A stretch of DNA of 64,000 nucleotides from Ascidiella aspersa. Taxonomy: Eukaryota. Below, one piece after another: positions 52,002 to 61,000 of this stretch (within the stretch, counting starts at the first letter, position 1; every line of letters begins with the position of its first letter). The translations under genes were made by a program, and so were the position numbers. Where the stretch lies: NCBI GenBank assembly GCA_963924565.1, contig OZ004611.1:21514001-21578000 (forward strand), in the 5' to 3' direction. Below the pieces are notes generated by a model. The model ran no database searches. It had not been told where the DNA came from and was given only the letters and a program-made list of their open reading frames with translations.

Positions 52002-55000
52002 CTGGTAAAATACATTTAAAGAATAAAAACTTAAAAAGACGATTAAGGACACGGTATAAGCGACTCGCCGTTACACCCTCTATAAAAGCTCCTATAAAAG
52101 AAAAAAATACCTTTCCAAGTAAATTGTAAAAAACTAGTTTGCCACCAAAGTTCGCCAATTGGAAATAATTTTGTATCAGTATTATTTTGAAAAGGTCGCA
52201 ACACTTTTAATTAAATAAACATAACGAAATACACCGAAACGGGTATGAACATTTTGTGTTGCGAGTAATAGTTGTCCTTCGGAAAATGTTCATTTTCTAA
52301 CATATCACTGCCAGCAGCGTTAACCTTCCCTATCCCCAACTTAAGAGATTATATTACGAAACAAAAAACATAGTGGTAATAGTAGGCGTGTTTTTTAATG
52401 ATAGTGTAGAAGTATGGGGGGCATTTAAAGCATGTCCCCCAGACCTTTTACTAATTTTCAAAATAATTCCCTAAGTTATTTATTAGTCATTGTTTTGTTT
52501 AATTATGAGAAGATTAACTAACGTATAAACAAAAATAGTTAAACCTAACAGGTTTAAAGAACCGGTTACAGTTACTGCCGTGTAAGTGTCTGATGTACAA
52601 CTCATTTTAACGTATGACCTTGAGCCGACCTTGTTTCGTCTAGCCCAGGGGTTCTTAAACTTTTTTCACCGCGGACCCCTAAAATTTTGTTTTGTTTCGC
52701 GTCGACCACGGTAAGCAAGAATTTTTGAAAAATGACGTCATAAATTGATGTCACAGTACAAATCGACTTAAGAAATCAGTTTTCGGTCCACAAAATGTGA
52801 AAAAATAGTTTAAATACATTCAGTGTAAAATCGAATTACTAAATTTTTTATTTAGAAAAAATGATTACTTTCTAAAATATACATTAATATTTCACTTTGG
52901 CTTTCACGGACCCCCTAATACTAGTTCACGGACCCCCAAGGGGTCCATGGACCCCAGTTTAAGAACCACTGGTCTAGCCACATGGATACCCTGTCACGGA
53001 TGCCATATGGATTCCATGACTTAGTTGCCCGATCCATTAACGATTACATAGGCACTCACCCGGTTTCATGAACCACGCTGAACTGGATCTCGACTTGGGG
53101 CAGAACATCAAGGGGCACGGCGAAGTTAATCGCTTGGTTGTAGGTGGGATTAAGTGTCCGCTTCTTTGTGGAGGTTTTCTTCTTCTTGAGCAGCGTCCCC
53201 TCGTGGTAGATGGACACCCGGATGTAGGGATCTTTTAAGAAGAAATGCGGTTCAATTATTTATTTTTGAAGATGAACATGCTAAGAACAGTTACTGAGCT
53301 GCTCAGTTTCGTACTTCAGGGCTTTAGTTAGGAGTAATTTGTTTTGGTAAAAATGTGTCTTAACCAACAGTAGTGTTTTTAGTAAAGACGGTTATTTGCT
53401 TTGAGATAATATTATTTCTAAGAACAGTATTCGGTTTTGAAGTTATTAATGAGAGTAAAAAAGTTGATAATTTTTTTGATTGTAATGGAACAACAGAATC
53501 TGAATACATCGAATACCATGCCAATTATTACCTTGACTTTGTATTTCAATAATTCTTCTATGAAACCAAACGCTATTCCTCCAGGTGTAAGTCAGGGCAT
53601 AATTGACAATTTACTATTGTGTATAGGCTATTCACATAAGAAAAGCCATATATAAATATCATTTTTACATTTAGGTCAAATATTTTATATTTCGTTGAGG
53701 TAATTCAATGTTGTAAACAAGTCATTTTGAAATGACTTAAGTCCAAGTCAAGTTTTTTCGAATAAATAATAGTCAAGTCCCAGTCAAGTCATAATTAGAC
53801 GAAGTCGACCTTAAGTCAAGTACTTGTCATAAAAATACAAAGTCAACTGATAAACTTGTCCAACTATGAGCAAATAACTCACAAAAAAGATACCATAAAC
53901 GCAACGTAAAGCAATCAAATCGTTTTATGTGCAAAAATTAAGATAAATAACCAATTTAAAACAAATAAACTCAATGAAAATTTTTCTTTCAACCATAGCC
54001 ATTTGTCCAAAAGACTGAAGTCAAGTTATTTGCTCAGAAGATTAAGTCAAGTCAAGTCATTTGAAAACAGTGACTTAAGTGCACTTAAGTCAAGTCATTA
54101 CAACACTGATGTAATTTTATCGAACTAAATTTACCTGGGGGTTTCTGTTCCAAGTCGATTCCGACTTCTGAAAGGTTTCGCGCTTTCAGCAAAACGACTG
54201 TGAGCTTTTCCGCGCTTGGTAGATAGCCTATTCGGAGAAGCATGTCCCCGAAAGTTTCGATGCCCTCCTGTGAATGTAAAGACGAGCTATTTTTTATTAA
54301 ATAAAACCAATGTTAACGAAATACATATTTAGAAAAACTATAGTTTTGAAAATTTTATAGCAAATTTAGCGAAAAATATATTTAGTTGCAAAACATTTTT
54401 TATATAGCTTTTTCCTCATGAAAATAGTTTGATTTTCACCTATAGAACGATATATTTAATACATTAATAGTCAATATTCATATGATATAGATAAATGTAC
54501 CATCGGCACCAATTCGACGCATAACTTAATGTAGTTTAGAAACAGACGGACTTAGTACGTAATTTTTACGATAAGCTTCATTATGAAAAATAAATTTAGT
54601 TGGTTTATGTCAAAAAATGTTGTGTTTTTATCTAAAGTTTCCTGTGTGAAGCATTGCTGGCCAATATCGCGCAATTTTATTGATTTCTTCAATTGACGCA
54701 AGTAAACTCCCAAGAGGTCACCAACATAGGTGGCAAAATAATTAGGGTCTTGCTGACGTTATTTAACAGACGTGGCAATATAGCGTAACTGCAAAACTTG
54801 CATCATAATTGCCTATTTATCTCACGAGAAAAAGATCACCGCATAATAATTAATGCGAACTGAATATGTAAAAAAGAATATATCTCCTCGCCCTAAAGCA
54901 CGTTAATGACGACAATGACTTCGAATGCAATATACTTTAGACTTTTCTTGTCTCAGTCAAAAAAATCAAATAGAATCTATTTGAATAAGAGACTGATGAT

Positions 55001-58000
55001 GCCGTGATTGGCGTAATATATTTCTCTTTTATAAACTAGAACCTATAGTGACTGATTTTGACTGAGACAATAAAGTCTAAAGTATATACGCATAATAATT
55101 ATTTAGGATTAAAAAAAACTATTATCTTAGCCAGCAAACTGGCAAATTTACGATTAGACTGCATATTTTCGTTAACATAATTTGACTCGGTCGAATTACT
55201 TGTCGATCACTCGTTTGACTAATAAGACATAATTTTAAGAACGTATCAGCTAAAAAAACTGGCTGTTGAATGGGTTTTACCAAAATCAGTTTGCATAATC
55301 AAAATTCGGTTTAAAGTTGCAAACTGTATACGTTTAGTGAAATATCAAACATTTGAACACAATACATACGACTCCGAGGCACAACTTTTAGGCTGACTGA
55401 CAAAAATCCTGACGTCACCTGCTCGTGCGCCTCCAACTTGTGGATTTTCCGCCAGAGGTCGATCCTGGTGTCGAGGTGAAACTCGTCCAGTCGCTGCACC
55501 ACGGTGCCCATGCACTCGTCACGTGAGTGGGGGTCAAAGTTGAAGAACTTGATCTGCGCAAAAAGGGTGGAAAAAAGGCGTTTATAGGTCATTAAAAAAT
55601 GTAAGAAATTTACTTCATATTGAAAAATGTTTCTGAGCTTAACTTATTATGCATGATTTATATAGGTTTAGGTTAAACAATATCGGTTAATGGTAAATAT
55701 CAGAGAAATCAGGTGGCACTATATAAAGACAAATTCGAATCAAATACAATTTGTCTTTATACAGTGCCACCTGATTTCTCTATTTAGAATTAGGATAAAT
55801 ACGGCCATATACAAAGATTGTTAAATATCAGTTAACCATAAAAATAGGACAACCACATGTTCATTATTGAAAAAGGCTGTTACTTTTGCTGTTATAAATT
55901 ATTTAAACTTAAAAAGCTCTTAAAACTGTTTATTTATAAAAACAGATAAAACATAAAATCATTTCTTAAAATCTTTCAGAAATATATATTACGCCTATAA
56001 GGCATCGTCAGTTTCTGCACAAAAACAAACATGTAAAAATGCCAATATTAGTAATTAAAAAGTAAAATACATAAAATAAATGGTAGGATTGCGTATAGGT
56101 CTAAAATCATTAAACACCTGCAGATGTCAGATGCAAAAGCAGCAACTAGCGAAAGGCATCAAAACGACAACGTGAAAAAAACGGAAAGAAAGAGAAAAAG
56201 CAGAAAGAAAGAGAAAAAGCACGCAACTGATAAGCATGTTATCAAACGGTGTCGCAGAGCTATCATTAATGGAAAGCAATAAAACGGGACATAAACAAGC
56301 CCCGGGCCAAAAATTACCTTACGCGTGGTAGTGTCATTTTTTGGATATTTTTAAGATCTTTGGATACGAAGACAAGAATCTTTCTTTTACATTTTATTGT
56401 CCGCGGGAGATCCTTACTTTCTAAAGTGTTTCAACTTAAAAAGCTCTTTGAATTTAACTTCCCAAACTTGCTTCAGCATTAAGAAAGCTACGTCACAAGA
56501 CGCAGCCACTTGTATAAGCAAACAGGTACCAATAGTTGCTGGGATTGCGTGTAGGCGTATAAGGAAAACGTATAAGGAAAGTTATAACTCAAAATATTTC
56601 TTTCTATACACTTTAAAATATTGCCTTAGATTATAACATACCCCCAAATATGTACAAGTATGGCAAAAAATGTACAAATAATTTTAGTATTAGACGAGTA
56701 CCTACACTACACTACCACTCTAATCCCTATTTCGGAATGCACAAATCCCTATTTCGAAATGACGTCATACCTGCACTGTCTTTTCGCGCAGTTCCTCTTT
56801 GGCAACCTCGAATGAGAAGTTCTCTTGGAAGAGGGGGTCCACCGTTTTCCGGTGCTTCTGGCTCTGTTTTTCGTTGCCCCCGGGCAGCACGGTTACCGTG
56901 CAATAAGGGTCGCACAGATCTGCATAAAGCGTTTGATTTTTAATTTGTGTTTTTTGTTAATTAGGTTTTTATGTGCTAGGTATGGACATTGATAGGATAG
57001 AAACGAGGCAGATACCCCATAACCGAGCAATAGTATCGGTACCCGCGTGGGTGGTACAAAAATATTATGTATATTATTATCCAACGTAATATGAATGATA
57101 CACACACATAACAACTGTGATCTAGCCCTTCTGAAGCTGCTTTTTGACCAACGATTACGGCTTATGTATCATTAGTACACCGAAGCCATCACAGACTCAC
57201 CGACCATTTCAAATGACCAAAACGGTATGCATGTCTCCAATAACGTATATACCTGCAAGTATTTTTAATGTCCAGATAGGAGTACCTAAAATATGCCTTT
57301 ATCTGGCCATTAAATATGCTTGTAGTACCACCTAACGTACATGGTAGTCATAAACAAATGGAAAAGCAATGCAATTATTTTTTTCTAAATTTGCAAAAAA
57401 GACGGCTCTGCGTGCGTCTACGCCTAATTAAAACGGAAAAGCCAAGTTAACAAACCAACAACGAAGAAGAACTTTAAAATGGGTGTCAAAGTCAAATCCG
57501 TCGAGTAAATCGACTCATTTAAAAAAGACTGTTCGATACGTACTAACGTACTTGTATCATCAACAGTTAATGTGACGAAAAATGTCTTCAAACTTCACTT
57601 ATAAAAGGTGGGGCGCACTTTTTATCATTAGGAGTTTCTAAACGTTCGGTGCAGCGAAAAGACGCCTGATTTGGTTGTTTAGGCAAAACTTCCCCATTTA
57701 AATCAACAGCTCATCCCTAGAAAGGCGTTGTCAAACCAACTAGATAAGCGGTTTTCAAACTTTTCTAAACATCTTGCCTGGCGGAACCCTTTGCAATTAT
57801 TTTGATATTTTTTAAGGGTCAGTTGATCATGTTTATTGTAGTAACTATAGTGCGCTCACATTTCTTTCTACTGTAACAACTTTCTAACTAATGCGAACGA
57901 TATGTTGAGAGCAGGCAGTAAGCAACAATAGAAACTTTATGAAGTCACAAGAGACATTCCATAAAACGCTATATTATCGATTGATAAAGCATAAATAAAG

Positions 58001-61000
58001 ACTAATAATGATGACAGATAATGTTTAAATACATTCGATAAAGCCTTATCTTTAAAACGTAAACACTAATTCTCATTGCGGGCCCTCTGAAACTGCTGCA
58101 CGGACCACAGTTGGTTCGCGGACCCCAGTTTGGGAACCGCTGGTGTAGATGCTATTCTATCACGAACAACAATCTATGTCGATTGGCAAAACTTACGCGA
58201 CTGCTCTTTGGGACGCAAAAAGCGCGCCTGGTCGACGTAGACACGCAGGATGTTGAGCACGTGATCGAACTCGACCGAGAAGAAGACCTGGGGTGGACGT
58301 CGCCCACTGGAGGGCGATGACGGGTCCTAAAATTAAAAAACATACGATTCAAATAATATTGCGCTATATTTAAAAAAACGCACGCAAGGATTTGCCATGT
58401 TGGAGTCGCAAACTTTAGGTTAGCGATTTTTAACTTGCGAGTAGAGCGCTTGTTTGACGGTTTTAAATGGGTTAATATTGACAACGGTATTCAATAGTCA
58501 GTTTAAAGATTAATATGAGTGCAAATTGTTATGTCATTTTATTTTTATTATTTATCAATTAAATTTCTGCCATTACGTACTAATTTATTGAAAGATTTAA
58601 CTAAAACCTATTTAGGTAAAATTGATAAGATCCGCTGCTTTAATATTAAGATAAACAGAGAAAATGTGGAAACAACACATAGGTTGTGATGAAGTAAAGA
58701 TAGCTTTCTCTTATTGGCTTCTTCAAAATTATAAAGTTTAGCTTCTTTTTGGACTTGAAAAATTAAATAAGAAAATAAAATTCATTTCATTTTTTATAAT
58801 TTATGCAATTGGGCCTTTAAAAATCTCGTTGTCCAGAGCGCATAACAAGTCCAACCAGCAACATCACACAATTGAAACCAACTGCCTTTGTTTTAACCTT
58901 GTAAAGTTTGCACAACGTGCAAAAGCGTTAGGGTTTATCGACATTACCGAAACGATGCAACATCGTCAGTTAGGCAGAGCTTTTGACAAGCTAAATAGCT
59001 AGTTAGAGAGGAAGCAATGGTTTAGGCCGGGCTGATTAATCGTTTCTGGAAACGGTTAGGATGCTGCACTTTTCCGCCCTTAAACAATGTCGAACAGGAG
59101 CGTATTGGGGGCGGGGCGCTCGTGCCGTAAGTGTTATTTCGACATGACAGTTTAACGCACTGACTTTCGCCTGCCAAAATCGAAGTTTAGGCAAGGCCAA
59201 ATATATACTGTTATTTCGTTCAACGGAAAAATTGTACCACGCTAACATGCTTTTTTGATATATACAATTAACAGTGTTGGGCCAATGCATGTTAAAATAG
59301 ATGGTTATCGTCCCACTAAAAAAAAAAGAAACAAGTTGGTAAAATAACGTGATGGTTTTTCAACTATAAAAATACGCGTCAAAAGTGGAATCTGCACTGG
59401 TAGCGCCAACGACCTTTCTAATTTGGCCTTGTTCTTGCAATACACAGAAAAAAATAAAATTCTAGGGCGGAGAAAAATTTGAAAGCAAACGAATACGTAT
59501 CTTCGGACGGCAGCCAAATATAGGTGCCGCTTCCAAAGTGATTATTTTCTCCTAATTTCCAAATTCAAATACCGAGTTTTTCGTCAAAGCGTGTCAAACC
59601 CTGTTGTTTCGTGCTAAGCCTTTGGTGACTCGTTTTCGGCAAAGGTTATAAAAAAAAGGTGACTCGTTTTCGGCAAAGGTTATCAAAGGTTATTCGAGGT
59701 CAAAAAAAAAAGGATTGCACGTTTTTTTGTTATAACTTGTTTGAGATCAGTCAGAGGCCGGAAAGGTTGATGGATTGACGCAACAATAGTTATCTAGTAT
59801 AAACAACGGCCAGTGTGGGTTCCAGAGATGTCGCATTACAAAAGGTAAAAGACTTGACAAACCCGTTTTTAGAAATGCTAGAAAATAAGTTTGTATGGAG
59901 AAACATCTGCATCTCTATTTTAACTTGACAACACCATCCAGGTGTATAATTAATCACAATCCCTAGGCCTAGACAATGCGTGCTGTAGTCTAAAACAGAC
60001 ATACACAAGCATAAAACAGACAGGTGATGCTCATCCTACTAAAATTGTATATTTGACTCGTTAGCATTGCGCGCCTGAAGGATTGTGGTTTCAAACCCAT
60101 GCGTTTTAAAAAAATTAGCTACCCGAGGGGCCTGAAGTTGATCGCAATTATATAAGCCTGTCGCCCATGTCTAAATAACTAATAAAACCGACCCTTTTAT
60201 CAACTTTATGGGCCGGGCAGAATATCAAGAAACATTTAAGTGACGGAAACTAAACGGGTTTATCAACCTTGGCGCTCGCGAAAAATTGCTGTTTTATTAC
60301 TATGTTATATATGGCTTATGTACATGCCAGTGATATAAAGGCAATAATTAAAGCAATCATACAGAGGCAAATAAAAACAGCTGTCCAATTCTGGTCGTGC
60401 AATGAATCCGCATTCTGAAAACATGCTTGATTGTTTGCAGTCACGTTTATTCTGCAGAAATGGCAAACTTGTTGTGTAAACCAATGACTTTAAAAGAGCA
60501 ATGTGTCCTAACAATTAACCAGGCCCCACTTTTGATTTAAAATAAATGTCAGGCTTAACTTGGTCTGCCATTACACAAGCATTCATGCTACACCGATGGG
60601 TCGTACGCCCCACATTATAAACCATTTCTTTATATAGAACTGACACGAATCACAAGAAAAAATACTTCATGTCTTTTTATGCCAAAATTATTTGTTTCTA
60701 CAAACATCCTAAATTAGTCCTCTTCAACTAGGATTTAGTTCACTTTTGAAGACCTAATATTTTTGATTTGAAGTCATATAAATCTTATTTTATTAAATCG
60801 AGGTCGCGATTATTTCGACAAACATCCAATTCAAAATCGCGCAAGGAGTTTGCTTCGATTTTCGATTTCAAATGACTTTACTGTCAGACCGTATATGCTA
60901 AATAGGGATTGCGAACCACTGACCCGGCATAGATCGTCAGTGACCCATTTGTAAGTATTTCTAATAATACCGAAATATAATCAAATATTTCATCACATAT

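Follow-up and report, generated by a model that had tools for sequence, protein, structure and literature searches.

We report a family-level variant of the hammerhead ribozyme (HHR) in which the A at core position 13 is replaced by U (A13U), turning the GAAA of the core into GUAA. The variant was met in a 64,000-nucleotide (nt) stretch of Ascidiella aspersa DNA (contig OZ004611.1, positions 21,514,001 to 21,578,000; hereafter the window, numbered from its first letter), which holds two GUAA motifs, copy 1 and copy 2 (Table 1). Judged by sequence, both are minimal type I hammerheads from the pseudo-long terminal repeats (pLTR) of Penelope-like elements (PLE) belonging to two different families, A and B. 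The PLE minimal hammerhead is itself of a known kind (PMC4209133, cited here, like the other publications, for the parts of its text and supplements that were covered), and what is new, as far as these comparisons reach, is the family-level A13U hammerhead, carried by family B, to which copy 2 belongs, and by a separate family C. By the same comparisons, the lineage of copy 2 kept transposing after the fixation of A13U. Folding predictions indicate that U13 likely weakens or stops self-cleavage, the evidence as a whole leans toward a non-cleaving state, and we give roughly equal weight, for and against, to a reading in which GUAA lineages keep a non-cleaving fold while trans-splicing supplies the 5' end.

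Two hammerheads from two Penelope-like families

The letters of both motifs were re-read directly in the window and agree with the initial annotation, which had described GUAA cores, paired stems and an AU-palindromic stem III. The core runs C3-U4-G5-A6-N7-G8-A9, an extra U9a, stem II from G10.1-C11.1, and G12-U13-A14-A15.1; 3' of A15.1 follow the palindromic stem III (AUAU in copy 1, AUAUAU in copy 2), U16.1-A17 and stem I, and stems I and II pair in both copies, closing a type I junction. Compared to the consensus core (C3 U4 G5 A6 N7 G8 A9 / G12 A13 A14 A15.1 / U16.1 H17; PMC3088659), position 13 is the sole mismatch in either copy, and with U at this site both are variants rather than canonical members, sharing the extra nucleotide between 9 and 10.1 and the G10.1-C11.1 pair of minimal hammerheads. 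Against shuffled sequences, the fold of copy 1 scored z -3.14 and that of copy 2 z -1.68, with equally good folds in 11 of 200 shuffles. The Rfam covariance models matched nothing in the window and likewise nothing at 4 loci, two GAAA copies among them (E up to 5); Rfam is blind to minimal hammerheads of this kind, GAAA or GUAA.

The Penelope-like origin proposed in that annotation was borne out by frames linked to the same hammerhead families. Upstream of the family A, B and C hammerheads lie frames with a reverse transcriptase (RT), a CxxCxxC linker and, at the C terminus, a GIY-YIG endonuclease (EN), and the GUAA hammerheads sit after RT and GIY-YIG frames of 679 amino acids (aa) in family B and 713 aa in family C. 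At the family level, the hammerhead was placed in the pLTR of an RT and GIY-YIG element at loci L142 (A), L126 and L127 (B) and L139 (C), L127 displaying the family B pLTR followed by the open reading frame (ORF). Pfam matches of these frames to RVT_1 and GIY-YIG had E values of 5e-6 to 2e-3, mostly under the curated cut-offs. The RT motif reads FIDD in family C and YIDE in the single long family B copy, and the linker CGKCALC of both families fits the CX2-5CxxC reported between RT and EN (PMC8557442). By features, given the weak Pfam scores, the elements are likened to the EN-bearing PLEs Neptune and Nematis (PMC8557442), which display RT followed by C-terminal GIY-YIG, the CxxCxxC linker, 5' truncation, an inverted 5' piece and a tail of variable length. 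Both window insertions combine 5' truncation, an inverted 5' piece and a tail, many inverted pairs occur elsewhere, and an inverted 5' piece with flanking direct repeats belongs to the PLE layout described in the same source. Elsewhere in the genome, on contig C2 (30.627-30.640 Mb, locus L144), PLE copies stand head to tail with a 3422-bp period and a common frameshift.

Metazoan PLE minimal hammerheads (PMC4209133) resemble those studied here in being type I, in the short stem I, the extra 9/10.1 nucleotide and the G10.1-C11.1 pair, in the palindromic stem III for dimers, in occurring as solo and inverted copies, and in a splice acceptor at stem I, as in Penelope of D. virilis. Conversely, U13 is fixed here in two families, whereas the core variant named in that source is U3-A8, and the 5' exon is here a putatively trans-spliced host leader instead of a cis exon.

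A genome-wide pattern spanning both copies yielded 82 matches against 0 for the reversed control, far above chance, and the loop of copy 1 was unique to that copy; with A, C or G at position 13 the same pattern yielded 1219 matches, all of them GAAA among the 100 listed. The flanks of copy 1 match family A, for which 104 matches were obtained with position 13 left open, the 100 listed comprising 98 GAAA, 1 GGAA and 1 GUAA, the latter being copy 1 itself; 69 further copies were found by the family A tail alone, and A occupies position 13 in 43 of the 43 readable ones. The U13 of copy 1 is therefore private, and its GUAA is, on these counts, a one-off mutation. A single GUAA family for both window copies is ruled out by the family A flanks and the GAAA counts, and the proteins of families A and B are 44% identical. 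What had been read as structure-preserving divergence between members of one GUAA family, in N7, loop II and stem I, is divergence between families A and B. The suggestion that the shared A13U is a family-level variant stood for copy 2, whose family is mostly GUAA, and fell for copy 1; the GAAA family consensus named beforehand as the sign of decayed copies was found in family A and not in family B. As judged from family membership, the pair of motifs is partly coincidence, their common GUAA is a coincidence within the window, and the family-level variant is larger than first claimed, having become fixed both within family B, in a young lineage, and in the separate family C.

U13 as a family-level state in families B and C

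Counted by eye, 100 family B matches comprised 74 GUAA, 24 GAAA, 1 GCAA and 1 GUAU, one of the GAAA rows being from another family and one a short stub. Mean pairwise distance with position 13 removed was 11.3% among GAAA copies (21), 5.5% among GUAA copies with N7=C (18) and 1.6% among GUAA copies with N7=U (29), as computed on 70 of 82 rows after dropping 12 that were short or from other families; the net difference between the two GUAA subfamilies was ~2%. By these distances, GUAA in family B is a younger state than the GAAA copies. In the family B tree, whose root was set by hand and whose bootstrap had not settled, all 49 U13-derived copies and 3 GAAA copies with a common tail indel fell on one 99/93 branch, and U13 copies as one clade obtained a p-AU of 0.37. 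From the measured ages we infer the order GAAA, GAAA plus indel, GUAA and a young GUAA burst.

An assembly artefact was ruled out for the family B U13, since T is found in about three quarters of independent whole-genome sequencing (WGS) reads: in organism A, with reads aligned at 82% likeness, A occupied family B position 13 in 245 of 1001, this check having covered family B. In RNA reads of the same organism, A was present in 9 of 19; it accounted for 33 of 97 depth units in organism B and ~95% in organism C.

Family C was first met as another GUAA motif at a locus led by a spliced leader (see below), and its hammerhead has a two-pair stem II and the stem III ACUAUAGU. The C-type GUAA accounted for 75 among the 100 listed of 216 matches, counted by eye, and the C-type GAAA for 1 among the 100 listed of 233. 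Searching by tail alone gave 94 hits, of which 45, retained by fuzzy match to the motif, have both halves, with U in 43, C in 1 and a gap in 1 at position 13; one further diverged copy (L336) reads GAAA. GUAA spans five subfamilies of this family. A local duplication on contig C1 (5.96-6.18 Mb, loci L274-L280) includes a family C copy, most duplicates carrying A6G and one keeping A6.

Over 586 aa, family B and family C proteins share 51% identity. An endonuclease tree was built from 56 hits selected blind to HHR sequence; 15 without a strict-pattern HHR were left out, 6 of which show decayed motifs of known families, and among the remaining 41 HHR-linked copies (~8 families) position 13 must have changed twice or more to account for the supported branches, the backbone being unresolved (the row of L134, whose HHR carries a deletion, was mislabelled). 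A13U, seen twice, is the sole family-level core change among these 41 hammerheads. Families B and C as sisters were not rejected (p-AU 0.315), and two independent origins of U13 appear likely from the tree.

Natural hammerheads with single core deviations, some of low activity, have been described (Perreault 2011, PMC3088659), similar in this to the present ones; unlike these, the deviations in the text of that source are U3-A8, A6C, A6a, a U13a insertion and U15.1-A16.1, with no A13 substitution. No A13U hammerhead was found in the literature surveyed, outside of which lay supplements consisting of figures and Lünse 2017, a paper about small hammerhead variants of PLEs. The combination of GUAA with Penelope hammerheads gave no literature match, and that of A13U with hammerheads gave 5 records, which by their abstracts deal with other RNAs. 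The supplement of PMC4209133 (file 2, text without the GAAA column) contains 12 GUAA strings, none in the core; a mutational scan (PMC9901934) gave no A13 value in its text or in a search of its supplement; and the covered parts of PMC11014351, PMC6257768, PMC6765202 and bioRxiv 2026.07.22.740005 hold nothing on A13U.

Spliced leaders and the predicted effect of GUAA on self-cleavage

Two leaders of 16 nt each occur at the start of many short copies in families A, B, C and others, the join falling precisely on the AG that is the acceptor in the unspliced form, and window copy 1 is led by leader 1. This leader is the 16-nt spliced leader (SL) of Ciona (Satou 2006, PMC1488885 Table 1), with 357 matches before GT in arrays of 584-bp period, and leader 2 has 2860 matches, 2305 of them before GT, in arrays of 429-bp period. 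The Ciona system as described in that source differs from the present one, where retrocopies led by a leader number in the hundreds and a further leader-like class forms much larger arrays; leader-led PLE retrocopies were not found in the literature surveyed. A cis-spliced first exon of the element was rejected as the source of the leaders because each of the two occurs in gene arrays and stands in front of many families that are unrelated. Trans-splicing is known for the Athena elements of rotifers. The arrays (e.g., contig C7 14.77-14.82 Mb and C3 5.22-5.45 Mb) represent two classes of spliced-leader-like genes, those of the Ciona type having varied intron parts. Approximately 555 leader 2 matches have no following GT, and the first 12 such loci mostly lie ahead of a PLE hammerhead, with a few (L148, L150, L157) ahead of other sequence; leader-led retrocopies are common in the genome.

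The commonest defined 5' end of the insertions, in GAAA and GUAA families alike, is the host spliced leader just upstream of the hammerhead. By a strict rule, 16 of the 69 tail-found copies of family A and 11 of the 93 of family C are leader-led, and 4 and 2, respectively, start within ~3 nt of the cut. These tail-found copies display no pile-up of 5' ends at the ribozyme cut in either family, which is uninformative on activity because the GAAA control has none either. Leader-led copies retain the whole hammerhead upstream of the cut, hence their templates were uncut.

In the folding model, the probability of the A9-U13 pair was 0.94-0.97 and that of U9a-G12 0.98-0.99 in 4 of 4 GUAA copies, compared to 0 and 0.60-0.80 in 3 of 3 GAAA copies. 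The U13-A9 pair, stacked over a U9a-G12 wobble, would extend stem II and tie up the catalytic G12, so that cleavage is likely weakened or lost. Substitutions of A13 are strongly harmful in minimal hammerheads. G12 has been discussed as a catalytic base (PMC6257768), and a viroid hammerhead ceased to cleave when a U was inserted between G12 and A13 (PMC3907566). The model paired the minimum-energy dimer via stem III for a family C copy and not for the two window copies.

In the preferred reading, the element RNA would undergo trans-splicing at the acceptor, inside stem I or immediately ahead of it, and then be copied uncut, reverse transcription starting ~70-150 nt downstream would give rise to short leader-hammerhead-tail stubs, and the rest of the fold may be kept as a structural signal for protein binding, palindrome dimerisation or acceptor context. 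GUAA lineages would thus transpose though cleaving poorly or not at all, as trans-splicing yields the 5' end. Catalytic mutants of the hammerhead left insertion by a PLE of the anole unaffected in vitro, with RT starting downstream of the hammerhead (PMC11167929). This element, PAc (Poseidon of Anolis), likewise has its hammerhead at the front of the ORF region, and its RT start fits the stub ends observed here; its core is canonical, whereas natural lineages here carry a core change. Furthermore, Naiads proliferate without a canonical hammerhead, and the role of PLE hammerheads has been stated as unclear (PMC8557442).

Several points weigh against this reading. The folding model lacks non-canonical pairs and predicts U9a-G12 in GAAA families too. 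Over the five family C subfamilies, 0 of 12 core columns changed versus 17 of 54 free columns (p 0.027), an invariance that fits continued catalysis. The leader does not explain the intact core of the GAAA families, since these are leader-led too and retain a perfect core at protein identities of 42-61%, which means that something still selects the core there. A shallow RNA (cDNA) run (75 reads, 6% of the run) had no leader-hammerhead junction or read-end pile-up listed, the junction appearing as loose ends in the DNA run. No cleavage rate for an A13U hammerhead was found in the literature surveyed, and the two U13 origins are likely only, because the family B root was set by hand and B and C may be sisters.

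Self-cutting by GUAA itself is a tentative, rather doubtful alternative: GUAA would constitute a second working core, A13, a position regarded as invariant, having been replaced by U twice in active, still-cleaving lineages, with dimers that cleave, perhaps only with the element protein, and cleavage under selection. With stems and 9a included, 0 of 31 family C columns changed (12 core, 19 stem/9a) versus the same 17 of 54 free columns (p 0.0002), so that the other core letters and both stems are constant over the five subfamilies while variation is found in N7, in loop II, in the letters close to the acceptor and in the tail; however, the test is partly circular, the subfamilies (40 of 45 copies, assigned by hand) having been defined from free columns and the 45 copies having been kept out of 94 tail hits by their fuzzy match to the motif, and the core against the tail alone (0 of 12 versus 8 of 41) is not significant (p 0.17). 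On balance, the conservation points to selection on the fold, leaving catalysis either way. Changes in stem III come as entire AU units that leave it a palindrome in the canonical A15.1-U16.1 register, and a shifted register with U as an insertion was ruled out for family C on sequence, as it would require C15.1-G16.1. The recurrence of A13U in the endonuclease sample speaks for a working variant, and so do the anole PLE hammerhead, which cleaves only with its own protein (PMC11167929), and the natural core variants that retain low activity (PMC3088659), whereas the predicted A9-U13 and U9a-G12 pairs and the near absence of insertions starting at the cut site argue against it.

A reading less probable still takes A13U for a neutral knockout carried by master copies, with no selection on the motif and a core left intact for lack of time. 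The p of 0.17 for family C core against tail, the ~2% separating the family B GUAA subfamilies, and the decay of single copies at all positions, including 13 in other families, agree with it. Nevertheless, the same base appeared at the same position in two families and the endonuclease sample holds no further core change at the family level, stems I and II do not vary over the family C subfamilies, the oldest copies of which show 16% deviation in the tail, and no letter at 13 other than U extends stem II. A coding constraint, whereby the AUG at A9-U9a-G10.1 starts the element ORF as in the anole PLE, whose ORF starts at stem II (PMC11167929), is very improbable: in family B, position 13 is a silent site, the third letter of an Arg codon, but it falls in different codon positions between families, and the AUG here opens short frames only, of 2 (family A), 4-7 (family C) and 9-13 (family B) codons, which largely refutes it.

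If GUAA cleaves, the hammerhead consensus needs widening, and searches requiring GAAA miss a class of natural ribozymes. If it is dead, these lineages represent in vivo evidence that PLEs transpose in the absence of ribozyme cleavage, the 5' end probably being produced by spliced-leader trans-splicing instead. Either way, they constitute a natural experiment, with matched GAAA and GUAA forms in family B, where GUAA gave the youngest burst, and family C fixed for the same change; the spread after the core change suggests that the elements may not need self-cutting.

Insertions and neighbouring features in the window

Both motifs are intronic in a minus-strand synaptotagmin-like gene (Table 1), in agreement with their earlier placement in the introns on either side of one synaptotagmin exon. 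That exon by itself has no Pfam match, and the adjoining exons match C2 in Pfam, one of them matching synaptotagmins (best E 3e-20).

Table 1. Coordinates of the two PLE insertions, their hammerheads and the host exon in the window.
Feature	Position	Strand	Remarks
Insertion 1, family A PLE stub	54853..55088		Antisense to host gene
Spliced leader 1	54974..54989	+	Differs from the 16-nt Ciona SL by one mismatch; acceptor of the join inside stem I
Copy 1, minimal type I hammerhead, family A	54987..55027	+	Private A13U at 55014; predicted cut 55020/55021
Exon, synaptotagmin-like host gene	55419..55553	-	C2 domain, continuing frame
Insertion 2, family B PLE 3' stub	55906..56448		16-nt direct repeats 55906-55921 and 56433-56448; borders +/- ~6 nt
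Copy 2, minimal type I hammerhead, family B (older GUAA subfamily, N7=C)	55977..56017	-	Family-level A13U at 55991
Copy 2, predicted cut and splice acceptor AG	55983/55982; 56016-56015	-	Sense to host gene
Last family B ORF codons and U-rich spacer/intron-like region	56018..56350	-	Stop 56316-56314; ends in acceptor
Inverted 5' piece of insertion 2	56351..56438	+	Family B tail continuing downstream of hammerhead

Insertion 1 consists of an inverted tail piece (54853-54962, minus strand) followed by leader, hammerhead and tail on the plus strand, and is flanked by 13-nt direct repeats (54840-54852 and 55089-55101) that are likely a target-site duplication. For insertion 2, the assignment of the region preceding the hammerhead is based on 85% identity to the family B locus L126 over 455 nt, and the inverted 5' piece is 99% identical to loci L012 and L132. 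This insertion brings a strong acceptor and a possible donor (56317-56316), both on the minus strand and sense to the gene, into the synaptotagmin intron, and these signals could lead to cryptic or trans-splicing of the host transcript.

A 34-nt near-perfect inverted repeat with a 12-nt spacer occupies 55702-55781, and is probably a further PLE stub, since similar sequence adjoins another hammerhead family (loci L191, L196 and L338). At 52640-52977, terminal inverted repeats of 22 nt stand 294 nt apart, with a related copy at 58113-58148, resembling a miniature inverted-repeat transposable element (MITE). Finally, a weak tRNA match (35.7 bits) at 656-730 on the minus strand is possibly the head of a tRNA-derived short interspersed nuclear element (SINE).

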